From Betaproteobacteria bacterium (GTDB taxonomy: Bacteria; Pseudomonadota; Gammaproteobacteria; Burkholderiales; SG8-41): DNA of 37,455 nucleotides. A program made the position numbers and the translations under genes. The stretch spans positions 1 through 37,455 of the forward strand of contig JAIOOZ010000304.1 in NCBI GenBank assembly GCA_021414185.1, read 5' to 3'. The notes under the pieces are model-generated. The model ran no database searches and was not told the DNA's origin. It was given only the letters and a program-made list of their open reading frames with translations. Positions 7,016 to 31,515 of this stretch are shown piece by piece (the stretch's first letter is position 1; each line of letters begins with the position of its first letter).

Positions 7016-7023
7016 AGATTCGA

Positions 7024-7809: not shown

Positions 7810-7827
7810 CGCAGGATTTCAATCTCC

Positions 7828-7860: not shown

Positions 7861-7919
7861 TCCATGATCTCGAGCAGTTGAACCGGCGCAACGTTTCGCC
7901 AGCCCTCCGCTGCCTTGCG

Positions 7920-15700: not shown

Positions 15701-18700
15701 CTACTTCGCGCCGTCTCCGACCAGCGAGAACGGCGCCCAGAACATCGGGTGCGCATAGGAGTAACGCATTTTGCCGCTGTTGTCGCTCGCGCCCGGCCCG
15801 TCGATTAACGCGAGCATGGCCTGACGCAGCGCTTGCGCGCGGGTGAGATTCGGGTCTTGCATCTGCCGCCGGAACAACTCGGTGGTCAACAAGCGCGCCG
15901 AGACGGATTCCACGGGCCAGTTGGAAACCAGCAGCGCTCGCGCGCCGGCGTAGAAAAACGCGCGCCCGAGTCCCGACACTGCCTCGCTGCCCGCGCCGTC
16001 GCCCGCCGCAGTGTTGCACGCCGAGAGCACCACCCAGTCGGCGTTGAGCTTGAGCGCCAGGATCTCGTCCATGCTGAGCAGCCCGTCGCCGTCGCCGTCG
16101 GCAACCGCCGGCGCCGACAACGCCAGCGCCGGCTGCGTCAAGCCGTCGAGATCGCCCGGCACCAGTCCGTGGGTCGCAAACGCGATCACGCGCCGGTTCG
16201 ACAGATCCATGCGCTTCACCGTGCGCTCGCTCGCCGTCTGGCCGAGGAAAACATCCTGTGCAGGGTCGGCCTTCAAGGCCTGCGCTATTTCACGAATTTC
16301 ATCGGCGGTGTCGGGCAGGCGGGCCAGTTGCGCGAGCGTCGATGAATTCGCCACGTGCTTCCCCACCACGGAAGGTGGTGCACCCGCCTCACTTGCCGGC
16401 AGGCCGTCCATCGACGACGCCGTGGCTTCCACGCGCGCGATCGCGAGGTTACGCAGTCCGAGGTCCGCGCTTGCCAGTTGCACGCGGCTTTCACGAGCCG
16501 CTTGCGCTTGCTGCTCCTTGCTGAAGTACGGATCGCCGAAGCCGGCGAAGGCACGTCGCGCCGCATCCCCCGGCGGCAGCTTGCGCAGGGTTACCAGCGT
16601 GTTGACCGACGGCAATTGCGTGATCGCCACGCGCCGCACCAGCCACGGCACCGCCTTGTACTGCGCGAACATGACGCTGGTGCCGCCGGCTTCAGCAGCG
16701 GCGCCGGTCGGCAACAGCGCGAATGGAAGCTGCCCCAGCGCACCGTGCGGCACGATCAACAGGCTCTGCGCATCCTTCCACGCGGGCTCCACCGGCTTGA
16801 GTAACGCGTCGTAGACCTGTTGCCCGCGCGCAAGATCGAAGCTCGGTATTTGCGCGAGCCCGGTCGCGCCCGAATCGAGCGCCCTGCGTAACCTCCCCAC
16901 GATATCGATAAACTGCGCTTCGCCGAGTGGTGCCATGGCCAAAACGGGCTCGCCCTGCCGGGGTACTGCCCACACGTAAGTCTGGTCCGCGCCGACGTAG
17001 ATCGAGATCAGGGTCTCGCCCGCCTGCAATGCGGCCTGCGCTTCGCGCACCGTGGTGGGCTTGGGGTCGATCAGATTGGCATAGTCGGGAAAGCGCCGCT
17101 CAATTTCGGTCCGCAGTTGCGCGCGCTCGCTGCGCAACGCTACGATCGCGGCACGCATATCGGCCACCACCTTCGGCAACTGCTGGTCGCGTGGCGCCGA
17201 CGCGAGCCGGTTCACCAGGTCCGTCAACACGCCAAGGCGATGCTGGCCATCCTGTTCGCGGCGCGCGAGTTCAGCCAACTGCGGGTCGCGGATCGAAGCG
17301 CGCGTGGCGCTCGAGCTCAACGCGCGCTGCACCTGGCTGCCGCGCGCCACGTCGGCAAGACGGAACGATTCGGCCACCGCTTCCTGACCGGGAGACCCCT
17401 GGGTCAGCAGTGCAATGTACGCTTCCAGGATGCGCGTGAGTCGCAGCGCGCGCGCAATACCGCTGCTTTCTTCGCCGCCCTGCTCCTGGCGCGCAAGTTG
17501 CAGCAGTACCGGCACCGCCATTGCGAATTCCCGCGATGCCCCCGCGCGGTCCCCGCTCGCGGCAAGCGCGATGGCGAGATACCCGCGCAACTCCGCGACC
17601 GAGTAGTCCTGATCACCCAGCCGCGCGCGCGCCGTATCGAACAGTTGCTGCAGCATCGCCGCCGCTTTGGCGGCCTCGCCCGTCATCGTCAGCGCATAGC
17701 CCCAGTTCAGATCGCCAGTGCCGAACTTTTGCAGCAGCAACGGATCACGCGCGAGCCCTTCCTGCATCGCTTCGTACACTGGCAGCGCCTCGCGATACTT
17801 GCCCTGCGCGACGAGCGTCGCGCCGTAGATCTTGCGTGTTTCGGCGAGCCTGATCGATTCAGGAACGACGCCAGTCTTCTCAAGGGTGTCGACCGCGATG
17901 CGCGAAAGCGACTCTGCCTCGCGATAGCGGCCTTGCTCGGACACGACGCGCGCGAGCCGGCCCACAGTAGAGGCGCTGGCCGTCGAAAAGCGTCCGAAAA
18001 GGCGCAGATTGCGCATCAGCACATCGCGATAGGCGGCTTCCGCATCGGCGAGCCGGCCAAGTTGCACTAGCGCGTCGGCGCGATCCTGCTCCTGGAGGTT
18101 TCGGAAAAAGTGGAATTGCCCGGGCGTCCCGAGTTCGCCGCCCCTTTTTTTGATGAGGCCCAAATAGGCTTCCTGGTTTTCATCCATCAGCGCCACCGCC
18201 TTCCCGTAGGCCTGCGCCGCTGCCGCATATTTACCCTCGGCAAGGGCAACGTCTCCCCGCGTGCGCTCGACCGTGGCGCCAAAACGGCGCCGGTACGCCA
18301 CGTCCCAACTCGACATGGACGACAACGATCTCTCCGCCAGCGCGAGGCTTTCTTTTGCCGTGGCGAGGTCGCCGAGGGCCGCGTTGATGCTGGCGACACC
18401 CTGATAAGCAGCGATCAAAAAGGCAGGGTTTGGACGCGCCGTTGAGCGCGTCACGCTCAGCAATTGCTCGGACAGGCGCAGTGCATTGACATAGTTACCC
18501 CCGCCCCGTTCCATTATCGACAGCTCGAACAGCACGCGGCCTTCGATATTGGAGTCTGGTTGCCCGCCAAGACCGCTCGTCATGCCTTTCGCGTGCTCGG
18601 CGGCGATGCGCAAGTCGGCAATGTGGCTGCTCATCATGCCGAGTTCCCCGCGCGCGCGGGAGCGCTCGAAATAGAACCGCGCGAGCGCCGCCTTGTCGGC

Positions 18701-18970
18701 GCCCGCCGGCGGCTCGAGATTCGCCGCCTCTGTCGCGCGCGCTATCCTGGCTGGATCCGGCTGGTAGCTGTCGAGCAGCGCGTTGATGTCTTCGATGTTG
18801 CGCGGTGGCGCGGGGTAGCGACCGGACACTACGGATTCAAGATCCGCCGCCGGGAGCGGCTGCGCGCCCGCTGCCGAGCCGGCCGGCAGGCCACCCGCGG
18901 TCAGCGCAACCAGCGCAATGCACAGGCCCTGCGGGAAAATCTGGCGACGGCGGCTGGATGTCGGGTTCAT
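15701..18970 (-). CDS. exported TPR-repeat / CHAT-domain (caspase-fold) protein
   Basis: 1089 aa. The N-terminal signal has an RRR n-region (MNPTSSRRRQIFPQGLCIALVALTAGGLPAGSAAGA). About 600 aa of helical TPR-like repeats follow. The C-terminal CHAT core has the dyad contexts IAFATHG (His codon 16169..16171) and VVLSACNTAAGD (Cys codon 16016..16018). Strong SD GGAGGAGGG. Confidence 0.85.
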   Translation of the reverse strand: MNPTSSRRRQIFPQGLCIALVALTAGGLPAGSAAGAQPLPAADLESVVSGRYPAPPRNIEDINALLDSYQPDPARIARATEAANLEPPAGADKAALARFYFERSRARGELGMMSSHIADLRIAAEHAKGMTSGLGGQPDSNIEGRVLFELSIMERGGGNYVNALRLSEQLLSVTRSTARPNPAFLIAAYQGVASINAALGDLATAKESLALAERSLSSMSSWDVAYRRRFGATVERTRGDVALAEGKYAAAAQAYGKAVALMDENQEAYLGLIKKRGGELGTPGQFHFFRNLQEQDRADALVQLGRLADAEAAYRDVLMRNLRLFGRFSTASASTVGRLARVVSEQGRYREAESLSRIAVDTLEKTGVVPESIRLAETRKIYGATLVAQGKYREALPVYEAMQEGLARDPLLLQKFGTGDLNWGYALTMTGEAAKAAAMLQQLFDTARARLGDQDYSVAELRGYLAIALAASGDRAGASREFAMAVPVLLQLARQEQGGEESSGIARALRLTRILEAYIALLTQGSPGQEAVAESFRLADVARGSQVQRALSSSATRASIRDPQLAELARREQDGQHRLGVLTDLVNRLASAPRDQQLPKVVADMRAAIVALRSERAQLRTEIERRFPDYANLIDPKPTTVREAQAALQAGETLISIYVGADQTYVWAVPRQGEPVLAMAPLGEAQFIDIVGRLRRALDSGATGLAQIPSFDLARGQQVYDALLKPVEPAWKDAQSLLIVPHGALGQLPFALLPTGAAAEAGGTSVMFAQYKAVPWLVRRVAITQLPSVNTLVTLRKLPPGDAARRAFAGFGDPYFSKEQQAQAARESRVQLASADLGLRNLAIARVEATASSMDGLPASEAGAPPSVVGKHVANSSTLAQLARLPDTADEIREIAQALKADPAQDVFLGQTASERTVKRMDLSNRRVIAFATHGLVPGDLDGLTQPALALSAPAVADGDGDGLLSMDEILALKLNADWVVLSACNTAAGDGAGSEAVSGLGRAFFYAGARALLVSNWPVESVSARLLTTELFRRQMQDPNLTRAQALRQAMLALIDGPGASDNSGKMRYSYAHPMFWAPFSLVGDGAK

Positions 18971-20292: not shown

Positions 20293-21456
20293 TCACGCTT
20301 CGTCGGGATCGGGGTTCTCGGTGGCAGCCGCCGCGCGCAGTCGCGCGACCACGTCGCCCGGCGCCTGCGCCGCAATTTTCGGCGTCGCGCACTGCACATC
20401 GCCGTTTTGCGCGCGATGGCGCAATGCGTGGTCCATCAGGGTCAATGCCAGCATCGCTTCGCAAATCGGCGTCGCGCGTATGCCGACGCAGGGATCGTGC
20501 CGCCCGTGCGTCTCGATGGTCGTCGCATTGCCTGCCTTGTCGATAGTGCGGCGAGTGAGCCGTATGCTGGACGTCGGCTTGACGGCAACATTGACGATGA
20601 CATCCTGCCCGGTCGAAATGCCGCCGAGTATGCCGCCCGCATTGTTGGTGAGAAAACCCTGCGGCGACATCTCGTCGGAATGCTCGGTGCCTTTTTGCGC
20701 GACCGCCGCGAAACCGGCGCCGATCTCCACGCCTTTGACGGCGTTGATGCTCATCATGTTGTACGCGATATCGGCATCGAGCTTGTCGTACACCGGCTCG
20801 CCCCAGCCGACCGGCACGCCGGACGCAATGGTGGTGATTTTCGCGCCGACCGAATTACCGGACTTGCGCAGCTTGTCCATGAATTCTTCGAGCTGCGGCA
20901 CGGCGTCCGCATCCGCGACGAAAAACGGGTTGCTGCCAACGACATCCCAGGTTTTGAACGGCACTTCAAGCGGCCCCAGTTGCGACAGATAGCCGCGCAC
21001 CACGATCCCGTATTTTTCACGCAGCCATTTTTTCGCCACCGCCGCCGCGGCAACGCGCACCGCGGTCTCGCGCGCCGATTGCCGTCCGCCGCCGCGATAA
21101 TCGCGGATGCCGTACTTCTGCCAGTAGGTGTAATCGGCGTGGCCGGGACGAAACGAGTCCTTGATCTTCGAATAGTCTTTGCTTTTCGCATCCACGTTGC
21201 GGATCAGCAATCCGATCGGCGTGCCGGTCGTCTTGCCTTCGAACACGCCGGACAATATCTCGACGATGTCGTCCTCGCGGCGCTGCGTGACGTGGCGCGA
21301 GGTGCCGGGCTTGCGGCGGTCTAGATCGAGCTGGATATCGGCTTCCGACAATTCCATCCCCGGCGGGCAACCGTCAACCACGCAGCCGATCGCCGGCCCG
21401 TGACTCTCGCCGAACGAAGTCACGCAAAACAGTTTGCCGAGTGTGCTGCCTGACAT
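20293..21456 (-). CDS. aroC: chorismate synthase
   Basis: 387 aa, [33 protein letters not shown]...RHDPCVG. Confidence 0.95.
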
Positions 21457-21513
21457 GATGTTCTCGTATCGACCCGAAAAAACAGATTACGAGTTTAACA
21501 TAGCGCGTCCTGA

Positions 21514-22953
21514 CTACTTCGCCGCGTCGTCGCGCTCCGCCGCTTTGGCGCCTGCCGCCAGCTGGCGCATCAGCCGCCAAGCCATCGCGCCAAGTATCAG
21601 CACGCCGACGACCAGCGCGCCCCACAGGCTCCAGCGCTTCCAGTCGATGGCCGCGCGCAAGCGCTCGGCCCCGCCGAGTTCGTTTTGCGGAAAAGCCGCC
21701 GCATGACGCACGTTTACTTTTTGCGCAGCGGAAGTTTTCGCGGCCTTGATCGATTGGACCGCGTCTTCGCGGTAGCCCGGCACCAGCGTCTCGATCGCAA
21801 AAGCCGCGGGCTTCGCGCCGCCATTGCCGTACGCCAGCAGGAAGGGCGGCGCGCCGCGCGCGCTGAACACCAGGCGGTGCGGCAGCCAGCCCGCCTGTAT
21901 CTGCGGCAGGCCGGACCCGATGCCGCCGCCGCGCTGATCGACGCGCAAGAGCCAGTAACGGTCGGCCGTCACGCCGATGGCAAGGTCAGGGCTGGTGATT
22001 TCGCCACTCTGCTGGCGCAAGCGGTAAGCAACACCGCGCGCCACCGTGCGCCACGACTTTTCGGTCGCGTCCCGCGCCAGCAGTTCGAACTGCGCGACGG
22101 TATTCAGCTCCGGCAACTCGAAACGGATACGGTCTATCGGCGCATGGGCGCGCGTATCGAACACGTATTCGCCGGGTTTCTCGCCCTGCACTGCTTTGAA
22201 CGGCGCCCATTCGCGCGGAACATCGACGACCTTGTCGGCAAGCTCCCCGCGCACCATGGTGAGTTCAGGCTCAGCCTGCCCCCTGCCGTCGGCGAGCCAC
22301 GACAAGCGCAGATATTTCAGCTTCTGCTGCGGCAGCTCGATGCGCTTCTGTTCCAGCTTCTGGCCGCCGACTTCCAGACTGAGCAGGGGCGCGCCCGTAA
22401 CCAGCGGGCGCCATGCTGCGAGGTCATCGCTGCCATCGACCCTGAGCTTGCCCGAAAATCCGCCCGCCTCTGCTTTCCAATCCACGTCGAGCGCGCGCAA
22501 CGCGCGTTCGAGCGCCGTATTGTCGATGAGATAACCGGCCACGCGCGACTGCTTGTCGCTCGGACGCGCACCGCCGGAGGACATGACATTCACGCTCACG
22601 GCGCCGCCTGCGCTGCGTTGCACGCGGATCGACAGGGCATCAACGTTCTCGCCGGACTGTGCGCGCAACGGGAACAAAGTGAGTTTCTGCAGCGGCTGCG
22701 CCTCGCTGCTGGTCGCGCGACGCGGCCGCCACGCATGCGGCACCACCTCGCCGGCTCCGTTGAACACGCGCACATCGCCGAGGTCCGCGCGCGCAACGCC
22801 TTCGTACAGCGTCACCGGCGCCACTACTTCGTAAAGCGCTTCGCTGCCGTCGGCGTCGATAACGGCGCCGTACGCAAAGTCGGCGGGCTGCTCCGCGGCC
22901 AATGCAGGCGCCGCACAAAACATCGCTATCCCGGCAATGGTCCACGCTTTCAT
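21514..22953 (-). CDS. DUF3999-like exported protein with C-terminal membrane anchor
   Basis: The real start is the internal ATG 22953..22951 of the 940-aa track ORF, preceded by AAGGAGGA. The sequence begins MKAWTIAGIAMFCAAPALAAEQPADFAYGAVID...DLGDVRVFNGAGEVVPHAW. The C-terminal TM is WSLWGALVVGVLILGAMAW. The start overlaps the upstream stop (ATGA). The family call is from memory of sequence character. Confidence 0.7.
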   Translation of the reverse strand: MKAWTIAGIAMFCAAPALAAEQPADFAYGAVIDADGSEALYEVVAPVTLYEGVARADLGDVRVFNGAGEVVPHAWRPRRATSSEAQPLQKLTLFPLRAQSGENVDALSIRVQRSAGGAVSVNVMSSGGARPSDKQSRVAGYLIDNTALERALRALDVDWKAEAGGFSGKLRVDGSDDLAAWRPLVTGAPLLSLEVGGQKLEQKRIELPQQKLKYLRLSWLADGRGQAEPELTMVRGELADKVVDVPREWAPFKAVQGEKPGEYVFDTRAHAPIDRIRFELPELNTVAQFELLARDATEKSWRTVARGVAYRLRQQSGEITSPDLAIGVTADRYWLLRVDQRGGGIGSGLPQIQAGWLPHRLVFSARGAPPFLLAYGNGGAKPAAFAIETLVPGYREDAVQSIKAAKTSAAQKVNVRHAAAFPQNELGGAERLRAAIDWKRWSLWGALVVGVLILGAMAWRLMRQLAAGAKAAERDDAAK

Positions 22954-25841
22954 GCGGAATCCTCCTTGGTTTTGGGCGGCACCGGCGCGAAGTAGCCGAT
23001 CACGATCACCAGCAAGCCGACGCCGATGAACGATACCCAGCGTTCGACCGTGCCCGAATTGGCGAGGTCGATCAGAAAGAGCTTCACGATCACAGCGCCG
23101 AGCAGCGTCGCCCCGACCGCCCACAGCCCGCGCAACTGGCGGCGCGTTGCCATCACCATGGCGACCAGCGCGAGCAATGTCCAGAACAACGAGAACGCCG
23201 CCTGCACCAGCACCGAACGCATCATCGCGTCGAATCGGAATGGCACGTCCGCGTAATGGTGCAACGTGCGCAGCAGCACGCCATTCAGCGCAACAAAGGT
23301 AATCGCACCCAGCAGCTTGAGCGCAGCATTGGGGTCCGGCAAAGTCGCATCGGACAGGTCCAGTCGGCGCATGCCGATGAACCAGCTCACGATCGCCAAT
23401 AGCGCGCCCGCCTGCGCAAGATCGAGCGGATTCAGCAGCGGCACGTACGGCAGAGGCGCAGGATCGCCGTTGCTCGCGAAGTTCACGAAAAGTACCCAGC
23501 CCAGCAGGAAGACCGCCAGCGGCAGCGCGCCCGCATATAGATAGGCATGACGGTGCGCGGCGACCGGCCAGCCCAGGCGTTCGCCGCGCGCAGCGAACAG
23601 CGTTACCAGCGCACCGGGCACCAGCGCCCACGCAATCAGCGGCCACACGCGCCGGCCCTCGACATAGTGGTCGATCTGCCAGCCAACTTCCCACGACAAC
23701 ACGACCGCAAGCAACCAGAATCCCGCCGCGTGCAACCGCTCGAGCTGCGTCTGGTTGCGTCCTTTGTGCAGCTTCAGCACGTACAGATGCACTGCGAAGG
23801 CAACAATCCAGCCTATCCACGCCTGGGCCGCGAATGGATGCGGCTGCGCGCCCGGCGCCATGAACGTCCACAATAAAACCAGTGTAGACAGCGGCACGCT
23901 GGCCAGCGCGACAAAACGCGCCGCATTCCAGACGAGGCCGCGCCACAACAGCGCGAACATGGCGCAAGTGCCGGCGAAGAACAGTAACTGCGGATGGAGT
24001 CCCCAGGCATGGGGCGCGTGGCGCTCGATCTCCAGCAGTCCCGCACCGAACCACCACAAGACGCCCCAGATGAAAAGCACGCTGGCCGCTCCGAGCTCCG
24101 TCGCCGTCACACTTTCCGAATTTCTTTGCAGGTAATAGCTGCAGAACAACCCCCCCGCGCTGACCATGACGGCGCCGAGGTAAGCGCTGTTGAGTATCGG
24201 TGTTGCGCCGAACGGGCCGTGTCCTGCAAGAAAGGCAATGCCGGCGGCGATCTGCAACAGCAAGCCGAACGCGCGCGCAAGCGGACGTCCCTGGCGCACG
24301 CCGGTCCACACGATGGCCGCACCTTCGACCGCCCATACGGCAGAAGTGAGCCGGCCTTCAAACGCCAGCGGTACCGCGAGCGTCGCAAAGCCGACGCCGA
24401 GCGCCAGAAACGATTCGACGAGCAGCACCAGCGTTTGCTGCTTGCGCGCATAAAGAATAGTGGCCAGCGCGAGATAAAAGGCTGCCAGCGCGAACGCGCT
24501 CCACGCCGCGCCGAATTCCATGTCGCGCACGAGCGCGGTCTGCATACCGAAGGCAATCAGCGGCGTGCCGAACACCAGCGTGCCATCGACGTAATGCGTG
24601 AGCCGCGGCGCCTGGCGCAATGCGAACAGCACTGCGATTGCGACGTAGAACAGGAAAAACAAAATCAGAAAAGGCTCGGTCGTGGCGTAGAGTTCCGGCC
24701 GGTAATACTTGGAGCCCCACGCCAGCCCGATCACGAACGTGAACAGGAATCCGACCAGATTGAGTTCGCGCCATGACTTGTAGAACGCGATGACCAATAT
24801 GCCGACATCCAGCACCGCATAAAAACTGAACAGCGCAACGTGGCTGCCGCCGCCGGTGGACGTGAGTACCGGGGCGAGAAAACCGCCGATGACGCCCGTG
24901 ATCGCCAGAGTGCGCGAATCCTGCAGCACGGCAAGCGCGGCCGAAAATACGGCAACACCCGTCAGCACGACAAATGCAAACGTCGGCGGCAACAGGTGGT
25001 AGAGCCGCAGTGCCGCAAACACCGTCAGGTACATCAGCCCGATGCCGCCGCCCTGCAGCGCCAGCGCGTAACCGCTGCGCCGCTCGCGCAACCGCCAGCC
25101 GAACATGAGCAACGCAATCGCACCAACCGCCACCGCGGCGAGCCGCAGCTCGATTGGCACGATGTCGCGTTCGGCCGCGTACTTGAGCAAAAATGCGACG
25201 CCGAAAAACAACACGATGACGCCAATGCGCACCAGCGTGTTGCCGCCAAACAGCCACCGGGTCACCGGGTTGTCGGTGAGCAGATCCGGCTGCGTGGCGG
25301 CAGGCGTAGACGGGCCCTCCTGCGACGTAACGCGCTCGGCCGCAGGAGTCGGCGCGAGCGGCGAGGTAGCGAGCCCCTCCATTGCGATTGCCTCTTCGAC
25401 CGTAATCTCAGAACGCTGCACGATTGCAGCCGCTACCGGTGGCGTCGGTGGAGTGTAATCCGCAGGACGTCCGCCCGGATCCGGAATAGCGCCGTACTGC
25501 GTACCGCCGGAAGTCACGGTACTACCTTGCGCGTCTGGCGCAGTAGCCTGCTGAATTCCCGGCTTCTCGAGCGCAACCAGCCGCGAATGAATGTCCGCGA
25601 GCGATTTGTATATGTTGTCGACCTGGCGCTCGATATACGCGAGGCGTGTTGCAGTATCGTTCTGCGACGCGCCGGAGATCGTATCTGCGGTCCGTGCGGA
25701 TTCCCCTGTGCCCACATCCGACTTGGCAGACGCGCCCAGCGCCGCGCCGACTATCGTGCCCAGTATTGCGCCAAGAAACGCGGTGCCGAAACCACCCAGC
25801 GAACCGATCAGGCCGCCGATCACCAATCCTGCGAACCACAT
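22950..25841 (-). CDS. DUF2339-like giant polytopic membrane protein
   Basis: 963 aa. N-terminal glycine-zipper helix (GLVIGGLIGSLGGFGTAFLGAILGTIVGAALGA), a short coiled segment, a Pro/Thr linker, then about 25 hydrophobic segments by eye. SD AAGGAGGGG. Confidence 0.75.
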   Translation of the reverse strand: MWFAGLVIGGLIGSLGGFGTAFLGAILGTIVGAALGASAKSDVGTGESARTADTISGASQNDTATRLAYIERQVDNIYKSLADIHSRLVALEKPGIQQATAPDAQGSTVTSGGTQYGAIPDPGGRPADYTPPTPPVAAAIVQRSEITVEEAIAMEGLATSPLAPTPAAERVTSQEGPSTPAATQPDLLTDNPVTRWLFGGNTLVRIGVIVLFFGVAFLLKYAAERDIVPIELRLAAVAVGAIALLMFGWRLRERRSGYALALQGGGIGLMYLTVFAALRLYHLLPPTFAFVVLTGVAVFSAALAVLQDSRTLAITGVIGGFLAPVLTSTGGGSHVALFSFYAVLDVGILVIAFYKSWRELNLVGFLFTFVIGLAWGSKYYRPELYATTEPFLILFFLFYVAIAVLFALRQAPRLTHYVDGTLVFGTPLIAFGMQTALVRDMEFGAAWSAFALAAFYLALATILYARKQQTLVLLVESFLALGVGFATLAVPLAFEGRLTSAVWAVEGAAIVWTGVRQGRPLARAFGLLLQIAAGIAFLAGHGPFGATPILNSAYLGAVMVSAGGLFCSYYLQRNSESVTATELGAASVLFIWGVLWWFGAGLLEIERHAPHAWGLHPQLLFFAGTCAMFALLWRGLVWNAARFVALASVPLSTLVLLWTFMAPGAQPHPFAAQAWIGWIVAFAVHLYVLKLHKGRNQTQLERLHAAGFWLLAVVLSWEVGWQIDHYVEGRRVWPLIAWALVPGALVTLFAARGERLGWPVAAHRHAYLYAGALPLAVFLLGWVLFVNFASNGDPAPLPYVPLLNPLDLAQAGALLAIVSWFIGMRRLDLSDATLPDPNAALKLLGAITFVALNGVLLRTLHHYADVPFRFDAMMRSVLVQAAFSLFWTLLALVAMVMATRRQLRGLWAVGATLLGAVIVKLFLIDLANSGTVERWVSFIGVGLLVIVIGYFAPVPPKTKEDSA

Positions 25842-25885
25842 GGCCCCTCCTTTCCGGATGCGAATCTCAGAATGCGGTTAGAGAA

Positions 25886-27766
25886 TTATTTCCAGTCGCC
25901 GCGCAATACGGCAATGCGCTGCTGCAGGTACTCGGGCGTTGCCTGCTGCGGCGGCACCGGCGCGGCGACGACCAGTGATATTTTTTTGAATAGCGCGATG
26001 CGCGAGAGATTGGACATGGCGCGGCCATCCATGCGGCTGAAAAAGCTGCCCCACAAGCCGCGCAGCGCCATCGGCACCACCGGCACCGGCGTGCGCTCGA
26101 GTATCTGGGTAACGCCTGGCTTGAACGGGTACATCTCGCCGGTGTTCGTCATATAGCCCTCGGGAAATATGCAGATCAGATCGCCGGCGATAAGGCCCGC
26201 CGCAATATCGTCGTAGGCCTTTTCCAGCAACCGCGGGTCTTCCTTGCGCGTGGCGATCGGAATGGTTTTACCGGTGCGAAAAATGAATTTGAGCACGGGA
26301 ATCTGGAAGTTCTTGTAATACATGACGAAGCGGATCGGTCGGCGGCATGCCGCCGCGATGATCAGCGCATCGACGTAGCTCACGTGATTGCACACCAACA
26401 CCGCCGGCCCTTCTTCCGGAATGTTCTCCACGCCGCTTGTGTCGAGGCGGTAGATCGAATGCACCAGCAGCCAAATCAGGAAGCGCATCAGGAATTCGGG
26501 CACCAGCGAGAAGATGTAGATCGCGACCGCGGCATTGAGCAGCGCCGTAATCAGGAAGAGCTGCGGAATGGTGATGCCGGCATTGAGCAGCACGACGGCC
26601 ATGATTGCCGACGCCACCATGAACAACGCATTGAGGATGTTGTTGCCGGCGATGATGCGCGACTGATGACTGCGTTCGGCGCGGCTCTGGATCAGCGCAT
26701 ACAAAGGCACGATATAAAAGCCACCGAACACGCCGATCATGACAAGGTCGAACAGGATGCGCCAGTTGGCGGGATGCGCCAGGAACTGCATCGCCCCCAT
26801 GTGCTCCGTCACCGCCGTCGGGCTGGCAAAATAAAGGTCGAGCGCGAACAACGTGAGGCCTATGGAGCCGAACGGCACGAGACCTATTTCCACCTTGTGG
26901 CCCGACAGGCGTTCGCACAACAACGAGCCCGCGCCGACGCCAATGGAAAAAGTGGTAAGCATCACCGTCGCGACATGCTCGTCGCCGCCCAGCACGTCCT
27001 TGCAATAGTTCGGAAACTGCGCGAGCAGCGTGGCGCCATAAAACCAGAACCACGAGATGCCCAGCACCGAGAGGAACACCGTGCGGTTCTGCCGCGTGAA
27101 CTGCAGATTCGCCCACGTTTCGGTGAACGGGTTCCAGTTGATCTTGAGATCGGGCGCCGCCGGCGGCGCGCTCGGTACCGCGCGGCTCGTGAGATAACCC
27201 GCGCATGCTATTGCAATCACCGTAACCGAGACCAGCATGGCCGAGTTTTCCTGCGCGATAAGCACGCCGCCCAGCACGGTGCCGATCAAAATGGCGAGAA
27301 AGGTGCCGGACTCCACCAATCCGTTGCCGCCGACGAGCTCCTCGACTTTCAGGTGCTGGGGCAGGATCGAATACTTGACCGGCCCGAATATCGTCGAATG
27401 CAGCCCCATCAGAAACAGCGCGCCGATGAGTAAAGTCAGGTTCTTATTCAGGAAACCGGCCGCGCCTATCACCATGATGACGATTTCGAGCAGCTTCACG
27501 TAACGGATGATGCGCGACTTCTCGTATTTGTCGGCGAGCTGGCCGGCGGTCGCGGAAAACAGAAAGAACGGCAGGATGAAGAGTCCCGCGCACAGGTTCA
27601 CGAGCGTGCCGGAATTCAGCGTCGTGAGCGTTGCGGCATGAAACGCCAGCATGATAACGAGCGCGTTTTTGTACACGTTGTCGTTGAACGCGCCGAGAAA
27701 CTGCGTGCAGAAAAACGGCAGAAAACGCCGTTCGCGCATGAGACTGAACTGGTTCTGCCCGGACAT
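25886..27766 (-). CDS. fusion of LplT-type MFS lysophospholipid transporter and PlsC-family acyltransferase
   Basis: 626 aa. The N-terminal MFS part resembles LplT (RFLPFFCTQFLGAFNDNVYKNAL). The C-terminal part carries the acyltransferase H(X)4D box (CNHVSYVD) and the FPEG box (IFPEGYMTNTGE). SD AAGGAGAA. Confidence 0.8.
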   Translation of the reverse strand: MSGQNQFSLMRERRFLPFFCTQFLGAFNDNVYKNALVIMLAFHAATLTTLNSGTLVNLCAGLFILPFFLFSATAGQLADKYEKSRIIRYVKLLEIVIMVIGAAGFLNKNLTLLIGALFLMGLHSTIFGPVKYSILPQHLKVEELVGGNGLVESGTFLAILIGTVLGGVLIAQENSAMLVSVTVIAIACAGYLTSRAVPSAPPAAPDLKINWNPFTETWANLQFTRQNRTVFLSVLGISWFWFYGATLLAQFPNYCKDVLGGDEHVATVMLTTFSIGVGAGSLLCERLSGHKVEIGLVPFGSIGLTLFALDLYFASPTAVTEHMGAMQFLAHPANWRILFDLVMIGVFGGFYIVPLYALIQSRAERSHQSRIIAGNNILNALFMVASAIMAVVLLNAGITIPQLFLITALLNAAVAIYIFSLVPEFLMRFLIWLLVHSIYRLDTSGVENIPEEGPAVLVCNHVSYVDALIIAAACRRPIRFVMYYKNFQIPVLKFIFRTGKTIPIATRKEDPRLLEKAYDDIAAGLIAGDLICIFPEGYMTNTGEMYPFKPGVTQILERTPVPVVPMALRGLWGSFFSRMDGRAMSNLSRIALFKKISLVVAAPVPPQQATPEYLQQRIAVLRGDWK

Positions 27767-27800
27767 CCGCGGTTCTCCTTGTCAAATTGCGTGTTGCAGA

Positions 27801-29486
27801 CTATGCCTTGCGTGCGCGCCTGCGCCGAACTGCGCGCACGCCAAGAATGCCGGCGAGCAACAACCCTGCGGTGACCGGCAGCGCCCCGTTGTTCTGCGTT
27901 GCGGGTTCGGTCGCGGCGCTGACAAATTCGGACGGAAATGGCCGCGGACCGACCGGCACGATCTTCCACTGCGCGCGGTCTGCCGGTGTGCGCTGCATAT
28001 ACTCGTCGATAGAGGCGACCGGGAAGCTGCCAACGGCGCGGCTCGACGGAATCTGCGGTATGCGCACGAAAATGATCGCCTCGACTTCGCTCTTCAGCAA
28101 TTCTTCATACGCGCTGGCGGCAGACCGGCCCGCAGGCTGCGCGCCAACGAGCTGCAGCAGATCGTTGCCTATCGCATCGAACGCGACTGCCGGGTACAAA
28201 CGCGTCTGTTCCTCGCTCAGGTAGTCGAACGAGCTCTTGCCGCTGTCGAAGCTCATCTCCTTGAGCGCCATGTACGGATACGCCGCGGCCGCTTTCGCGT
28301 AGCTCGTCGCGCCTCGCGCCGGGATGTTCCAGCCCAGCGACCGCAGCGTGTCGATGCTGATCCCCGCGCAATTCGCACCCGCGTGCCGGTAGCGGAAATC
28401 ATGGCGATAAAAATGGTTGTAGACCCGCGCGATGGCGCCCTGATACGCAAACACGGCGCGATCGCTGCGCATGAGTGCTACCAGCATATAAGAAGGCCGG
28501 TAATACGCCTGCCCGCTGTTCAAATCCATCAGGTAGTTGTCCATCGGCACCATCGAAGCGACGATGCCTTTTTCGCTGAACGAATCGAGGTTGTAAAAAT
28601 TGTTGACCAGCCAGTCGCTCCATTCGCCGCGGGCGTTGCCGCGGCCCGTCACGATTGCGAAATGTCCGCCGTGCGCCTCGTCGTCGTCGCCTTGCGAGCC
28701 GTTGAGCATCACGCCCAGTGCGGCAAGTTGGTCCCAGTTGCGCGGTTGCCCTGGAGTCCGCTCCCACAACAGACGTGTTTCATAGCGGGGCGCGCTGTCG
28801 GCTTGCCGCACGAGTCCGCTCAACGTCTCTCCCGCGGCCAGCGGCGAAAGTTTGCTCGCGGCGGCATCGATGACGTAATCCTGCGGCCAGATGGTGCGCG
28901 CAGTCACCGCCGGCTTGCCGTCAACGCCTTGCGCGACAGTGCCGCGAATGCGCAGCGGGCGTTGCGTGAAAAACTTCGCGGTACTCGCATCGTAATACGA
29001 GAGATTGGCCGGGATTTTCGGCGTCACCGCGAAGCGCGTGACGGTACCATCAGCGAGTCGCAACGCGTTGCCGGACTCCTGCAACCTCGCGTCTGTAATT
29101 ACACTGGGCGATCCGACCCATATCAGCGGCGGGCGCGCCTGTAACTCCTCCGGACCCGCCGCGGCGTACCAGCGCCGCACATCTTCTTTGGCCGCAACGC
29201 CGTCTGTAAATCCGGCGACTTTGGCGCCCGGCCCCGGCACCGCGATGAGATCGTCACGGAAATACCACAACGCTTCTTTTGGCGTCGGGCAATCCGCGCA
29301 GGTACCCGGCACCAGGCGAAAGTCGGCGGCAGGAAACAAACCGAGGCTGCCGGCGGCCAGCGCGGGCCGCACGGCGGGCTCTGCTTTCCCGGCTGCCACT
29401 GACGAGGCTGCATTGGCTGCACCCGACGCCGACAGCCAAACCAGCACGTTGGCAATTACTGTTCTGAGGAAACCCGGTTTCAACAT
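27801..29486 (-). CDS. exported protein of unknown family with a C-terminal TM plus Arg-rich tail
   Basis: Start chosen at internal Met 29 (ATG 29486..29484, SD AAGGGGAG), which gives a signal peptide MLKPGFLRTVIANVLVWLSASGAANA. There is a CADC pair near the N-terminus. Motifs are HGGHFAIVTG (His codon 28662..28664) and HAGANCAGISID (Cys codon 28368..28370). The C-terminus is PVTAGLLLAGILGVRAVRRRRARKA. Confidence 0.7.
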   Translation of the reverse strand: MLKPGFLRTVIANVLVWLSASGAANAASSVAAGKAEPAVRPALAAGSLGLFPAADFRLVPGTCADCPTPKEALWYFRDDLIAVPGPGAKVAGFTDGVAAKEDVRRWYAAAGPEELQARPPLIWVGSPSVITDARLQESGNALRLADGTVTRFAVTPKIPANLSYYDASTAKFFTQRPLRIRGTVAQGVDGKPAVTARTIWPQDYVIDAAASKLSPLAAGETLSGLVRQADSAPRYETRLLWERTPGQPRNWDQLAALGVMLNGSQGDDDEAHGGHFAIVTGRGNARGEWSDWLVNNFYNLDSFSEKGIVASMVPMDNYLMDLNSGQAYYRPSYMLVALMRSDRAVFAYQGAIARVYNHFYRHDFRYRHAGANCAGISIDTLRSLGWNIPARGATSYAKAAAAYPYMALKEMSFDSGKSSFDYLSEEQTRLYPAVAFDAIGNDLLQLVGAQPAGRSAASAYEELLKSEVEAIIFVRIPQIPSSRAVGSFPVASIDEYMQRTPADRAQWKIVPVGPRPFPSEFVSAATEPATQNNGALPVTAGLLLAGILGVRAVRRRRARKA

Positions 29487-29627
29487 TTCGCACTCCCCTT
29501 GAGCGACCTCTTTTTTCCGCCATGCTAACCGCATATTCGCACTTCCGCATGAACGCTGCCAATCGGGCAACGATTTCCCGTGCTTAATGTTGCTGGCATA
29601 CCGACATTGCCAATTTGCGCCGTGCTC

Positions 29628-29939
29628 TTACACGTTTTTCTTGATGTAGCCGATCACCGTTTCCATCGCGTCGACCAGAAAATCCTTGTTGATCCAGAAA
29701 TACACTTCCTTGCCTTCTTTCAGGCTTTGCAGAACGCCCGCCTCGCGAAGTATGCGCAGGTGATGCGACACCGCGGTGCGGCTCAACGTGGACACGTCGA
29801 CGATCTGGCCGATGTTCAGGCGCTCGCCGGGCTCGAAAGTAAGCAGGATGCGCTGGCGATGCTCGTCGCCCAGCGCGGCATACACCTTGGAAATATTGCG
29901 CCACTCGCGGGGAATGGCACGCATGTAGTTCTTATACAT
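29628..29939 (-). CDS. ArsR/SmtB-family winged-helix transcriptional regulator (no cysteines)
   Basis: 103 aa from ATG 29939, MYKNYMRAIPREWRNISKVYAALGDEHRQRILL... with HTH IGQIVDVSTLSRTAVSHHLRILREAGVL. The protein contains no Cys. An alternative start is at 29924. Confidence 0.8.
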   Translation of the reverse strand: MYKNYMRAIPREWRNISKVYAALGDEHRQRILLTFEPGERLNIGQIVDVSTLSRTAVSHHLRILREAGVLQSLKEGKEVYFWINKDFLVDAMETVIGYIKKNV

Positions 29940-29957
29940 AACTACATTATTAGTTAT
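29938..29957. promoter_or_regulatory. perfect 7-6-7 inverted repeat (candidate ArsR operator)
   Basis: ATAACTA-CATTAT-TAGTTAT. It spans the -10 box through the first bases of the arsR-family ORF, in a locally AT-rich patch. Confidence 0.5.
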
Positions 29958-29975
29958 ATAGTTTTGTTCTGTCAA
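29946..29975 (-). promoter_or_regulatory. candidate sigma70 promoter of the arsR-family gene
   Basis: Minus strand reads TTGACA (29975..29970), an 18-nt spacer, then AATAAT (29951..29946). The A of ATG 29939 lies 7 nt after the -10 box. Confidence 0.5.
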
Positions 29976-29998
29976 GCCCGCCGACTGCGGCGGCGGGC
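29976..29998 (-). other. GC-rich hairpin after the M17 peptidase stop
   Basis: GCCCGCCG (29976..29983) pairs with CGGCGGGC (29991..29998), a perfect 8-bp stem with a 7-nt loop. No U-tract follows on the minus strand, so it is at best a non-canonical terminator or RNA end-stabiliser. Confidence 0.3.
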
Positions 29999-30028
29999 GC
30001 CGCCGCCCCAAACATCAGCTAAACAGAA

Positions 30029-31486
30029 CTAAATGCGCCGCGAATCAAGCAGTTCGAGCGTCCAGCCGACGCCAAAACCCGTTGCATCGGAAGCGACAGC
30101 GCCGAGCCCGCCCTTGCTGCTGTGCGCCGACAGGTCGACGTGTATCCACGGCGTGGCGCCGACGAAGCGCTTGAGCAAGCGGGTCGCCAGTATATGGTCG
30201 GCCTCGCCGTCGAGCGTGCATTGCTTGACGTCGGCGATCTTGCTGTCGAGCGCGCTGTCGTAATCGTCGTCCTGCGGGAACGCGCACACGCGCTCGCCTG
30301 CCGCCCGCCCCGCAGCCACGGCCTGCGCAGCGAGTTCATCGCTGGTCGCGAAAATGCCGCTGTAGCGGTCGCCCAGCGCGACGTGCATGCTGCCGGTCAG
30401 CGTCGCGTAATCGACGATGAGGTCCGGCTTGCCGCGCGCAGCCAATGTTAGCGTATCGGCCAGCACCATGCGCCCTTCGGCGTCGGTGTGCATGACTTCG
30501 ATGGTAGTGCCGTTCAGCGCGCGCACGACTTCGTTCTGGTGGTAAGCGCGCGGACTGATGTCGTTGCGTGAAATCGCCAGCCAGCAATCGATGTTGATGG
30601 GCAGCTTCATGCGCGTCGCCGCCAGCAATGTGCCGAGCGCGACCGCCGAACCGTTCATGTCTTCGTGCATGCCGTGCATATAACGCGCGGGCTTGAGATT
30701 GTGCCCGCCGGTGTCGTAACAAATGCCCTTGCCGACCAGCGCGACATGTTGCGTCGCACGCGGATGCGTATAAGTCAGGTGCACGATTGCGGCGTCGCGC
30801 GATTCGCTGCCCTGCGCCACCGCGCAAAATGCGCCGGCGCCCATTTTCTTGAGCCGCGCATAATCGTATTCTTCGCGCCTCCAGCCGTGCTCCTTCGCCA
30901 GTTGCTTGATGCACTCGCGATAGGTTGCCGGATTCAGTTCGTTCGGCGGCAGCATCGTGAGTTCGCGGCACAGCACGTTGCCTTCCGCGCGCGCGCGCTG
31001 CGCGGCGAATCCATCCTTGTCGCGATGACCGTATAAATGAATAGCCTTGAGCGGCTTGCGCGCCGGCTTCTTTTTGCGCTCGGGCAGCGCTACGCCGTTG
31101 ACCCAGGCGCAATACACCGCGAGTTGCGCCGCGCGCCGGCGCTGCGACTCATCGCCGCAAACAACCAGCGCAATTTCAGAGGGGTTCTCGGCAAGCAGCG
31201 ATTGCAAAGCACCGCGCACCGCAGCCTGCGCTTCAAAAACCGTTTTCTTCGGCTCCAGCATGATCCAGCTCGCGAGCGCGCCGTCCTTGAGGTTGCCGCT
31301 CACCGGCGATTTCCCGAGTTCGCCTGCTTTCATTTTCCGGCGCGCGAGCAGCGTAGCCAGCACGTCACTGGCCGGCCACGCGCGGGACAGTTCCCTGGCG
31401 AACGGCAGGATGAACAGAAAATGCGTGTGTTTGCGCAGCGCAGCAGCGCCCGCAACGGCCGCTTGCTGATTCAGTTTGGCGAGCAT
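30029..31486 (-). CDS. M17-family leucyl aminopeptidase-like protein
   Basis: Metal-site and active-site motifs VGKGICYDTGGHNLKP and HTDAEGRMVLADTL. Start taken at ATG 31486 (MLAKLNQ..., SD AGGAA) rather than 31516, which would cross the divergent promoter. Confidence 0.85.
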   Translation of the reverse strand: MLAKLNQQAAVAGAAALRKHTHFLFILPFARELSRAWPASDVLATLLARRKMKAGELGKSPVSGNLKDGALASWIMLEPKKTVFEAQAAVRGALQSLLAENPSEIALVVCGDESQRRRAAQLAVYCAWVNGVALPERKKKPARKPLKAIHLYGHRDKDGFAAQRARAEGNVLCRELTMLPPNELNPATYRECIKQLAKEHGWRREEYDYARLKKMGAGAFCAVAQGSESRDAAIVHLTYTHPRATQHVALVGKGICYDTGGHNLKPARYMHGMHEDMNGSAVALGTLLAATRMKLPINIDCWLAISRNDISPRAYHQNEVVRALNGTTIEVMHTDAEGRMVLADTLTLAARGKPDLIVDYATLTGSMHVALGDRYSGIFATSDELAAQAVAAGRAAGERVCAFPQDDDYDSALDSKIADVKQCTLDGEADHILATRLLKRFVGATPWIHVDLSAHSSKGGLGAVASDATGFGVGWTLELLDSRRI

Positions 31487-31515
31487 AATTTCCTGTCGAG
31501 GACGTGAGCGCGCCA

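Follow-up and report, generated by a model that had tools for sequence, protein, structure and literature searches.

A betaproteobacterial protein family, unnamed and predicted to be tethered to the inner membrane, at the head of a lysophospholipid-clearing operon

Lysophospholipid-clearing systems and the operon in the window

Two defence systems that clear lysophospholipids, aas and arc3BA, have been published. Aas and Arc3 have been tied to this clearance by experiment and are known gene neighbours; Arc3B corresponds to PF10101 and Arc3A to PF13163 (PMC8926400), and a PA3267-type fusion of LplT to an acyltransferase has also been described (PMC8926400; bioRxiv 10.1101/2021.08.22.457286). 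The gene analysed here (the target) is not mentioned among the neighbours of arc3 or aas in that paper or its preprint.

Here, we propose that the target product is best read, for annotation, as the founding example of a family, as yet without a name, whose members are periplasmic enzymes attached to the inner membrane. The target lies in a betaproteobacterial stretch of 37,455 nucleotides, the whole of which we call the window, in the following setting:

29946..29975, minus strand: putative sigma-70-like promoter, TTGACA-18-AATAAT, 11/12 matches (from a consensus scan only, which is not evidence of function)
29628..30011, minus strand: ArsR-family HTH regulator directly 5' of the target (HTH_5, E=1.4e-8)
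27801..29486, minus strand: target coding sequence, 561 aa (ORF list), with the SD sequence AAGGGGAG; member of an unnamed conserved family
25886..27766, minus strand: aas-type gene encoding LplT (MFS) joined to a PlsC acyltransferase (Pfam matches MFS_1 and Acyltransferase; NCBIfam matches LplT and, at positions 3-599, PRK06814)
22950..25841, minus strand: arc3B homologue, a DUF2339 polytopic membrane protein (PF10101, E=7e-182)
21514..22953, minus strand: arc3A homologue, DUF3999 (PF13163, E=2e-113), with a signal peptide and a C-terminal TM helix

The genes are separated by 141 nt (arsR-target), 34 nt (target-aas) and 44 nt (aas-arc3B), and the last 4 nt of arc3B are shared with the start of arc3A. 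An SD sequence, AAGGAGA, lies in the target-aas gap, no terminator was found in those 34 nt, and the arc3A ATG at 22953 has AAGGAGG upstream. The promoter-like match falls just 5' of the probable true start of arsR, ATG 29939; arsR homologues at target loci are 103-122 aa long. The target heads an operon whose other genes clear toxic lysophospholipids. A sequence-only reading of the window had placed it directly upstream of an LplT-acyltransferase gene, as the 34-nt gap to the MFS plus PlsC-type fusion confirms. The coupling to lipid metabolism that this reading suggested is much stronger than it supposed, with both aas and arc3BA in the operon, but its "lysolipid-producing" enzyme has to be reframed, since these partners remove lysophospholipids.

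The partners (P. aeruginosa PA3267 and PA5113-14 for Aas/LplT and Arc3A/Arc3B) share the operon in the window, and the set recurs elsewhere in varied orders. They have no homology to the target, although Arc3A is likewise periplasmic with a C-terminal TM helix. Arc3B, in a system whose mechanism its authors call unsolved, lacks obvious catalytic residues (PMC8926400), whereas the target has candidate ones.

Across 80 genome loci, lplT or aas adjoins the target in 31, in four gene orders that include a split aas-lplT-target and arc3B-arc3A-lplT-target, and this linkage spans Burkholderiales, Rhodocyclales and Nitrosomonadales/Methylophilaceae. DUF2339 is present at 11 of the 80 loci, arsR lies 5' of the target at 21, and a distant family member adjoins pgpA. 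At about 60% of loci, the whole Massilia/Oxalobacteraceae group among them, no lipid gene neighbours the target. By its neighbourhood the target belongs to the aas-arc3 cluster, on the same strand, at tight spacing and recurrently across lineages.

A further family, DUF2145, has been classed as Ser-type and papain-like (PMC10318531). It is encoded between arsR and the target at 9 genome loci and 2 metagenome loci, and at one locus (L087) it occupies the target's slot directly 5' of aas. DUF2145 hence shares or takes over the operon slot of the target.

The target sequence was absent from the sole RNA run of the source sample, a very small run; other sequencing runs yielded DNA-like contigs, and a matching operon was found in a related organism at ~92% identity. 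A target fragment joined to the C-terminus of Lnt (P0214) begins just 22 nt inside a 3-kb contig, and was therefore dropped as a probable assembly artefact.

The family, its conserved residues and its C-terminal tail

The target frame stays open beyond its ATG, up to a TTG at 29570 (ORF scan). We take the ATG as the likely start because AAGGGGAG lies 6 nt upstream, at 29493-29500, and because the N-termini of homologues coincide with this position. The homologues number at least 1,960, none with a Pfam domain, and fall into 425 clusters at 50% identity, with loci in 435 species-level genomes; judged from these members, the family is large, betaproteobacterial and unnamed. Searches of Pfam, NCBIfam and PDB sequences with the single sequence, with a profile and with 54 members at E<=10 gave no consistent match, and none came from the literature either. 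The earlier statement that the protein could be placed in no known family therefore stands. Its parts are as follows:

29409..29486, minus strand: predicted Sec signal peptide, residues 1-26, cleavage after ANA (by eye from sequence)
28797..29384, minus strand: N-terminal beta-rich periplasmic domain, ~residues 35-230 (AlphaFold full-length model, pLDDT mostly 80-93)
29289-29300, minus strand: C63-x-x-C66 pair (C63-A-D-C66), invariant among homologues
27927..28796, minus strand: conserved catalytic-type core domain, ~residues 231-520 (AlphaFold core model, pLDDT 92.1, pTM 0.91)
28644..28691, minus strand: acidic loop G266-D-D-D-E and His box GGH275FAIVTG (His275 codon 28662-28664)
28599..28604, minus strand: Asn295-Asn296, candidate third triad residue, on the strand after His275 (conservation and models)
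28350..28385, minus strand: H368-A-G-A-N372-C373-AGISID box (Cys373 codon 28368-28370)
27804..27890, minus strand: C-terminal TM helix and RRRRARKA, residues 533-561 (hydropathy, family-wide conservation)

The N-terminus, MLKPGFLRTVIANVLVWLSASGAANA followed by AS, has the look of a Sec signal whose cleavage site is of the AxA kind, and homologues share a comparable hydrophobic segment there. The two boxes, EAHGGHFAIVTG (residues 270-281) and HAGANCAGISID (residues 368-379), put His275 and Cys373 98 residues apart. Everything that the sequence-only reading had listed is found in the ORF, namely the signal peptide, the CADC pair, two boxes at this distance and a C-terminal helix with Arg residues, and the codon positions it gave for the His and the Cys are correct.

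That reading had made much depend on whether the His and the Cys are conserved, which they are. His275 is kept in 53/54 sequences, the exception (P0200) being frameshifted at the site, and is thus invariant among intact sequences; position 373 carries Cys in 50 sequences and Ser in the other 4. Within the proposed His box it is H275, the residue singled out by coordinate, that holds, whereas H272, which comes first in "EAHGGH", is only weakly conserved (24/54). N372 is conserved in 53/54 and N296 in 51/54 (D or Q in the remainder), and G266-D267 is nearly invariant. Considering 31 and 54 homologues, C63, C66, the DDDE loop, G274-H275, N372-C373 and the C-terminal RR are all invariant or nearly so, and such features are therefore evidently not chance. 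The core carries many invariant polar motifs (DDDE, NNFYN, SEKG, NSGQ, YRPS). Invariant polar residues could also mean a polar, non-lipid substrate or a metal site.

The target has three Cys only. Because two of them form the invariant CxxC pair, Cys373 is the sole unpaired one, and would be a lone thiol in an oxidising compartment. In the sub-clade with Ser, three changes go together (R361C, H368R, C373S), and a Cys/Ser swap at this position appears typical of a nucleophile. Conservation thus supports the view that His275 and Cys373 behave like catalytic residues. These observations bear on whether the target is an enzyme at all. It might instead be a tethered periplasmic accessory that binds a lipid or a partner for LplT/Aas or Arc3, its Cys and His being structural or metal-binding. 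Arc3A, from the same operon, offers a precedent with its comparable periplasmic domain and C-terminal TM helix, the acidic cluster beside the His is compatible with a metal site, and a known catalytic fold was not detected. We nevertheless regard a non-enzymatic role as distinctly unlikely: exchange of Cys for Ser near an invariant His is typical of nucleophiles and not of metal ligands, a lone thiol at position 373 argues the same way, and the family that substitutes in the target's slot, DUF2145, is itself enzyme-like.

At the other end of the protein, residues 534-553 hold the sole strongly hydrophobic 19-residue hydropathy window, with RRRRARKA next. We predict that this tail is an inner-membrane anchor, with a layout that is only generically sorting-signal-like. 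The sequence-only reading had seen an exosortase-type signal here, and a true exosortase, sortase or rhombosortase signal would imply that the mature protein is cleaved and moved to the surface or the outer membrane. Such a signal would have the three-part layout observed, in which a TM helix separates a short motif from an Arg cluster. In addition, some isolated tails pass the cut-offs of anchor models: that of the target, which reads "LPVTAG", scores 16.7 bits against LPXTG_anchor (cut-off 15.9), and that of P0107 reaches 16.6 with PEP_CTERM (cut-off 16) and 20.9 with MYXO-CTERM (cut-off 20). One distant family member also lies within an exopolysaccharide cluster, of a kind that often accompanies exosortases. 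A sorting signal is nonetheless quite improbable in our estimation. The matches are borderline, extend over the unrelated LPXTG, MYXO-CTERM and PEP-CTERM classes and lie in the stretch of TM helix and Arg residues; the target tail reaches just 8.8 bits against TIGR02595 (PEP-CTERM, cut-off 16), P0107 is the one tail of the 10 scanned to attain the PEP_CTERM cut-off, and full-length scans with the anchor models gave no match. Neither a PEP nor an LPXTG nor another motif is family-wide, most members lacking LPXTG and the equivalent positions reading ALPV, VPLP, PPWAP or nothing comparable, and the target lacks the PEP motif. Full annotation of the 37-kb window revealed no sortase or exosortase gene, in agreement with the earlier reading on that point.

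Comparison with permuted papain-like enzymes and other folds

The nearest described enzymes by layout are the lipid-acting clades of permuted NlpC/P60 proteins, and Lnb, TseH, Tox-Act1, YiiX/C92 and LRAT/PLAAT have in common with the target a periplasmic, membrane-attached domain. In these clades the residues follow the order seen in the target: the His lies on a strand, the Cys at a helix N-terminus, and between them comes a polar residue, for which the target has a candidate, on the strand after that of the His. A lipid-metabolism gene context (PMC12994826) is shared too, as is, at the level of sequence, a GD motif shortly 5' of the His. For papain-like enzymes in general, a His at a strand and a Cys at a helix start is the described placement (PMC10318531). 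In the full-length and core AlphaFold models alike, DSSP makes His275 the first residue of a beta-strand (275-282) and Cys373 the first residue of a helix (373-383/384), with N295 and N296 on the next strand (293-296/299). In the core model G266-D267 lies in a loop after a strand, not on beta1. The conserved His (53/54 sequences) precedes a residue that is Cys or Ser in 54/54. The broader idea of a permuted papain-like enzyme is plausible but unproven: the order of His and Cys agrees with what the sequence-only reading had supposed, and their placement on strand and helix fits, but neither profiles nor Foldseek link the target to PLAAT, YiiX or DUF2145.

Lnb (DUF4105), a lipoprotein N-acyltransferase of Bacteroides, compares closely in spacing. 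Its experimentally probed triad is His49-Asn66-Cys148, at intervals of 17 and 99 residues against 21 and 98 in the target (PMC11573676). Lnb has five TM helices, however, whereas the target has a single C-terminal anchor. Compared with the permuted clades as a whole, the target has an additional CxxC-bearing domain of ~200 residues at its N-terminus, and a much larger core (~290 residues) with many family-specific invariant polar motifs. By HMM, hhalign or Foldseek, no similarity was found to those of these clades that were compared, among them LRAT/PLAAT and YiiX/C92.

Could the target be a true LRAT/PLAAT phospholipase A/acyltransferase, making lysophospholipid that the downstream LplT-acyltransferase recycles? 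The resemblance lies in H-[FW]-A-I after GD, an N-C box ~100 residues on, a C-terminal membrane anchor and an adjacent lipid-recycling gene. The order of secondary structure also matches the topology of PLAAT3, which carries its His on the second strand and its Cys on the second helix. The LRAT triad is Cys-His-His, the second His standing ~12 residues after the first; no conserved His lies on the strand after His275 in the target, where N295-N296 are found instead. Pfam PF04970 (LRAT) matched neither the target nor, at E<=10, any of the 54 members. With an LRAT profile of 19 sequences, hhalign returned a probability of 0.35% on a spurious segment, and we rejected this top path, which pairs the chance strings FYRHWAIY (PLAAT3) and FYRHDFRY (target) and not the His or NC boxes. 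No PLAAT entry was among the 50 Foldseek PDB matches listed for the core, with 4FA0, 4DOT, 2KYT and 4Q95 in the PDB copy searched. The operon partners, moreover, are lysolipid removers, and do not point to a need for recycling lysolipid that the target itself would make. Membership of LRAT/PLAAT is thus highly improbable, and the likeness noted earlier does not hold up as kinship.

Profile comparisons with LRAT, YiiX/C92 and DUF2145 all gave hhalign probabilities <=0.4%, with shallow profiles, and positive controls of this shallowness were likewise non-significant (C92 against LRAT 4.6%, DUF2145 against C92 3.2%). The best paths against YiiX and DUF2145 fall in the catalytic register, though non-significantly. 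Comparisons with PLAAT3 and YiiX/YaeF singly were non-significant, and forced global alignments were uninformative.

DUF2145 shares with the target, besides the slot between arsR and aas, export and a series of motifs: GxD, an [SG]H-hydrophobic strand, a G-x-W...LN strand, NFF/NFY...P and N-[SC] at a helix start. PF09916 (DUF2145) had no match in the 54 members, and hhalign against DUF2145 profiles of 8 and 17 sequences gave 0.18-0.27%; the best path, at 0.2-0.3%, sets GD on GD and His on His. DUF2145 differs in its length (~265 aa), in having neither the N-terminal domain nor the C-terminal anchor, and in its Ser nucleophile type.

The sequence-only reading had proposed Foldseek on an AlphaFold model as a check for a permuted papain-like core. 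The core model has no PDB neighbour at E<=0.001, and the full-length model returned noise only from the PDB, comprising OB-fold proteins for the N-terminal part, where such weak OB-fold-like matches were the only ones, and a Josephin "clippase" at probability <=0.07. For the core, structural matches came near significance in two cases only, both of them uncharacterised giant-virus proteins in BFVD (A0A3G5A5F0 and A0A3G4ZPI4; the two E values are 1.7e-3 and 0.023).

The apparent Cys-His-Asn triad would also suit a periplasmic cysteine peptidase or amidase acting on peptidoglycan, lipoproteins or incoming protein toxins. Many NlpC/P60 and papain-like proteins have such activities (PMC10318531), the many invariant polar residues would suit a polar substrate, a toxin-inactivating enzyme is plausible in a defence operon, and the Massilia loci are devoid of lipid genes. 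The recurrent linkage of the family, however, is to lplT, aas and pgpA and not to cell-wall or protease genes, and similarity to any peptidase family is lacking. We consider a peptidase or amidase unlikely.

A possible role in envelope lipid repair

In light of these comparisons, what might the target do? The reading that we put forward, with confidence evenly balanced between its being right and wrong, is that the target is an inner-membrane-tethered periplasmic thiol acyl-enzyme acting on (lyso)phospholipids and co-expressed with Aas and Arc3B/Arc3A. The sequence features and their conservation, the predicted topology and secondary structure, and the recurring gene linkage are what the analysis shows; from residue conservation, the models and the operon we infer catalysis by Cys, His and Asn, a lipid substrate, and a direction of reaction, lysolipid being consumed as against generated. 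The Sec signal peptide would be removed on export, leaving the N-terminal beta-rich domain, with its CxxC as a disulfide or metal site, and the ~290-residue alpha/beta core facing the periplasm. The C-terminal helix and its cytoplasmic Arg cluster would fix the protein to the inner membrane on its outer face. A thiol active site would be built from Cys373 at the helix N-terminus, His275 at the strand start and Asn296 on the neighbouring strand, with the DDDE loop beside the His, and might form an acyl-thioester intermediate on a membrane glycerolipid, as an acyl hydrolase or transacylase on phospholipid or lysophospholipid. Co-expressed with Aas (LplT flippase and PlsC acyltransferase) and Arc3B/Arc3A, it would help to keep lysophospholipids from accumulating.

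A functional analogy exists for the version in which the target produces lysolipid. Lnt, an inner-membrane, periplasm-facing thiol acyltransferase of the CN-hydrolase fold, works through an acyl-Cys intermediate derived from phospholipid, and the lysophospholipid left over is the substrate classically handled by LplT/Aas. In fold and sequence, however, Lnt is unrelated to the target. Handling or clearing of lysolipid is at least as coherent as its production, because the operon partners aas and arc3BA remove lysophospholipids. As both partner systems are clearance systems, we lean towards consumption or transacylation of lysolipid.

A bolder version of this thiol acyl-enzyme reading is more doubtful, and we offer it tentatively. 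In it, the family would be new, with no solved-structure neighbour and with giant-virus proteins as its sole detectable structural relatives; the target would form a third, catalytic arm beside Aas/LplT and Arc3, as a periplasmic thiol lysophospholipase or transacylase that destroys lysophospholipids, or re-acylates them, on the inner membrane's outer face; and DUF2145 would be its Ser-type counterpart.

Because it heads a lysophospholipid-clearing operon, the target probably belongs to the machinery by which bacteria repair their membranes and withstand phospholipases, as a part not described before. A confident structural model now exists for ~2,000 "hypothetical proteins" across 435 species genomes, and two unannotated families, that of the target and DUF2145, emerge as alternative occupants of one operon slot. 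In betaproteobacteria, the target is thus a concrete candidate for a catalytic step so far missing from the repair of envelope lipids and from the defence against toxins of the phospholipase type.

A conserved, predicted exported protein without a named family

Here, we describe the first protein of the operon as a member of an undescribed family, lacking a detectable fold neighbour among solved structures. The genes concerned, from a freshwater metagenome, are as follows.

27801..29486, minus strand: target coding sequence, 561 aa counted from the ATG
34 nt 3' of the target, same strand: aas-type fusion (LplT::PlsC)
Within 21514-25841, minus strand, 44 nt 3' of the aas-type fusion: arc3B (DUF2339, PF10101), 963 aa
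Within 21514-25841, minus strand, start ATG 22953 (Shine-Dalgarno AAGGAGG), overlapping the arc3B stop by 4 nt: arc3A (DUF3999, PF13163)

The open frame of the target extends 5' as far as TTG 29570; the ATG is the likely start because a Shine-Dalgarno sequence, AAGGGGAG, lies 6 nt upstream and homologues begin at the same place. The sequence-only reading had described a Sec-type signal peptide, a CADC pair, His and Asn-Cys motifs 98 residues apart, and a C-terminal hydrophobic helix with an Arg cluster, and each of these was found. The N-terminus reads as signal-peptide-like (ending ANA/AS), the pair is C63-A-D-C66, the motifs are EAHGGHFAIVTG (residues 270-281) and HAGANCAGISID (residues 368-379), with 98 residues from His275 to Cys373, and the helix is followed by RRRRARKA.

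That reading could place the protein in no known family, and we agree: the target has no match in Pfam, NCBIfam or PDB sequences, the family profile has none in the PDB, and no Pfam family recurs among 54 aligned members at E<=10. At 90% identity the family divides into at least 1,960 clusters, every one named "hypothetical" (425 clusters at 50%), and relatives occur in 435 species-representative genomes. Labelled genomes carrying it are overwhelmingly Betaproteobacteria: Burkholderiales (including Massilia and other Oxalobacteraceae), Rhodocyclales, and Nitrosomonadales/Methylophilaceae.

The 31 full-length homologues share about 130 invariant positions, including C63, C66, D267-E270, G273-H275, V294-L300, S304-G307, H368, N372-C373, and the C-terminal Arg pair. 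Across a wider set of 54 sequences, with identity down to about 32%, His275 is kept in 53 (the exception, family member P0200, is frameshifted there), as is Asn372, while at position 373 Cys occurs in 50 sequences and Ser in the other 4. The proposed His motif stands at His275 but not at its first histidine, H272, which is poorly kept (24/54). A non-catalytic accessory factor is, in our estimation, improbable. Cysteines number exactly three in the window protein, as in most relatives, and since two form the CxxC pair, Cys373 would be the protein's sole unpaired thiol in the periplasm.

The Ser373 sub-clade (P0141, P0146, P0153, and P0156 in alignment A2) shows the coupled changes R361C, H368R, C373S, and E270G, with N299P also among them; the neighbours of P0153 encode a dienelactone hydrolase and a MacAB-type ABC system, and aas is not among them. 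In P0128 (748 aa), an N-terminal DUF2238 predicted membrane domain is fused before a full-length family protein. P0214 (locus L081, 22-1512), which starts 22 nt inside one end of a 3-kb contig, joins family residues 279-410 to the C-terminal part of Lnt (LNT_N, CN_hydrolase), followed by glyQ; assembly or gene calling probably created this chimera.

Predicted fold and membrane anchor

The AlphaFold model of the full-length target is fair (pLDDT 78, pTM 0.80), and confidence is very high (pLDDT 92.1, pTM 0.91) when residues 228-525, the core, are modelled by themselves from a 54-sequence alignment. The core model runs in this order.

Strand 255-262; acidic QGDDDE loop; strand 275-282, first residue His275
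Strand 293-296/299 with N295-N296; two further strands; helix 343-360
Helix 373-383, first residue Cys373; four more helices; last strand

This placement of Cys373 at a helix start and His275 at a strand start resembles that of papain-like enzymes, which are characterised by a Cys opening the core helix and a His on a strand (PMC10318531), and the intervals of 21 and 98 residues are similar to those in His49-Asn66-Cys148 of Lnb (PMC11573676). With such a layout a peptidase or amidase comes to mind, a reading that we consider unlikely. Foldseek against the PDB returned nothing at E<=0.001 for either model. Near-significant structural matches to the core model were limited to two uncharacterised giant-virus proteins in BFVD, A0A3G5A5F0 (Homavirus; E=1.7e-3, probability 0.99) and A0A3G4ZPI4 (Terrestrivirus; E=0.023), over about 200 aligned columns at 11-12% identity.

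The motifs had been likened to those of LRAT/PLAAT thiol enzymes. PLAAT/HRASLS structures were present in the searched PDB copy (a PLAAT3 sequence matched 4FA0 exactly), and the family profile was also compared by hhalign.

PLAAT3: probability 3.7%
LRAT profile (19 sequences): 0.35%
E. coli YiiX: 0.14%
E. coli YaeF: 0.07%
C92 profile (24 sequences): 0.04%

With no PDB match at E<=0.001 and a score this low against the LRAT profile, the resemblance was not borne out as family membership, and we regard a true LRAT member as highly improbable. The PLAAT3 and LRAT-profile alignments were driven by a chance FYRH string, the catalytic boxes not being aligned. This string (target residues 358-366, FYRHDFRY; human PLAAT3 residues 19-26, FYRHWAIY) is what produces the top hhalign path and could mislead a motif-level comparison. 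The non-significant YiiX and C92 paths place Cys373 on the YiiX catalytic Cys128. Positive controls also scored low (C92 against LRAT, 4.6%; DUF2145 against C92, 3.2%), and the profiles are therefore too shallow to settle membership of the permuted papain-like superfamily.

The C-terminal helix and Arg cluster are kept across the family; the short motif preceding them is not (ALPV, VPLP[IV], PPWAP or absent). Full-length scans matched no sorting-domain model, and tails scanned alone gave borderline matches to LPXTG_anchor, MYXO-CTERM, PEP_CTERM, PVV-CTERM, and others, mostly over the transmembrane and basic part. The sequence-only reading had noted that the window lacks a sortase gene; in the now full annotation, exosortase and rhombosortase genes are absent as well. 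That the protein is truly sorted to the surface is quite improbable; the simplest reading of the tail is an inner-membrane anchor, N-terminus outside and C-terminus inside. Arc3A, encoded further along the operon, also ends in a helix of this kind.

Gene neighbourhood

The neighbour previously named as an LplT-acyltransferase is indeed a fusion of an MFS/LplT-like transporter with a PlsC-type acyltransferase; it has its own Shine-Dalgarno sequence, and the 34-nt gap contains no terminator-like site. The arc3A start/arc3B stop overlap suggests translational coupling. PF10101 and PF13163 are Arc3B and Arc3A of the Pseudomonas aeruginosa "antagonism resistance cluster 3", which keeps lyso-PE and monolyso-cardiolipin from accumulating and thereby shields the cell from a type VI phospholipase toxin, and fused LplT-acyltransferase "aas" genes adjoin arc3 in many bacteria (bioRxiv 10.1101/2021.08.22.457286 / PMC8926400). 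The target family is not mentioned in that paper, and its place in the aas-arc3 cluster is a new observation.

An lplT or aas gene adjoins the target in 31 of 80 genome loci. Unbiased clustering of flanking ORFs, then Pfam scans, resolved four gene orders.

Arrangement 1 (window order): arsR, sometimes DUF2145, target, lplT::plsC, arc3B, arc3A
Arrangement 2: arsR, aas (acyltransferase + AMP-binding domain), Tat-signal amidohydrolase, target, lplT::plsC, sometimes arc3B
Arrangement 3: aas, lplT, target
Arrangement 4: arsR, lplT, target, sometimes then aas; related order arc3B, arc3A, lplT, target

Massilia/Oxalobacteraceae loci lack lplT, aas, and arc3 neighbours, the flanks being MOSC, GGDEF, Na/H exchanger, and ABC transporter genes. 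One distant member (L095, 2060-4063) adjoins pgpA (phosphatidylglycerophosphatase A), another is surrounded by exopolysaccharide genes (L096, 1-13671; Wzy_C, Bac_transf, GNVR, glycosyltransferases), and the contexts of others are uninformative. The amidohydrolase (Amidohydro_2, about 410 aa) of Rhodocyclales-type loci lies between aas and target at about 6680-7909 (plus strand) in L070, with equivalent gaps in L056, L061, L071, L078, and L079.

A public run contains a 13.5-kb contig collinear with window 21000-31496, from arc3A to pepA, at about 92% identity; a related organism therefore carries the same operon. The window ArsR frame as listed (TTG 30011, minus strand) is probably too long, its homologues (about 103 aa) pointing to ATG 29939. 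Only 7 nt separate that ATG from the end of a strong match to the sigma-70 promoter consensus (TTGACA-18-AATAAT, 29946-29975, minus strand), so the arsR mRNA may have little or no leader. The operon is followed by aroC and MFS genes, and about 1 kb past these lies the gene of a 1,089-aa TPR and CHAT (caspase-like) protein (15701-18970, minus strand).

A DUF2145 gene, absent from the window, lies between arsR and target in nine genome and two metagenome loci (L004-L009, L024, L025, L069, L084, L085). In L087 the order is arsR, DUF2145 (888-1580), aas, with no target gene and DUF2145 in its place directly 5' of aas; in L089 DUF2145 (3334-4074) is divergent from aas. Published work counts DUF2145 among the papain-like families, with Ser replacing Cys (PMC10318531), and its conserved motifs (GxD...YSH-MAF, G-x-W...H-x-LN, GNFFLDD-F-x-E...P, QNSNQW) follow the same order as those of the target. 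It has two invariant Cys (C33, C105) besides the QNSNQW box. In the best hhalign path the GD and His of one family fall on those of the other, and NFYNLDSFSEKGI falls on NFFLDDVFEFESI, at a probability of only 0.18-0.27%. We offer this as a lead only: the two families may be analogues, or very remote relatives, that fill a single functional slot.

Possible role in envelope lipid metabolism

What, then, might the protein do? The analysis establishes its sequence features, their conservation, the predicted topology and secondary-structure placement, and the gene linkage; catalysis, the substrate, and the reaction direction we infer. The likeliest reading, at about even chances, is a periplasm-facing, inner-membrane-tethered acyl-enzyme acting on (lyso)phospholipid and functionally coupled to Aas and Arc3. 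Its active site would comprise Cys373, His275, and Asn296, and its substrate would be a phospholipid or lysophospholipid. Because both partner systems clear lysolipids, a lysophospholipase/transacylase role is favoured over the lysolipid-producing role proposed earlier; by analogy with Lnt, the protein may be a producer whose by-product is recycled.

The most fitting class for the family would be the Cys-His acyl-enzymes of envelope lipid metabolism. There is a considerable chance, though below even, that it represents a new catalytic arm of anti-phospholipase defence.
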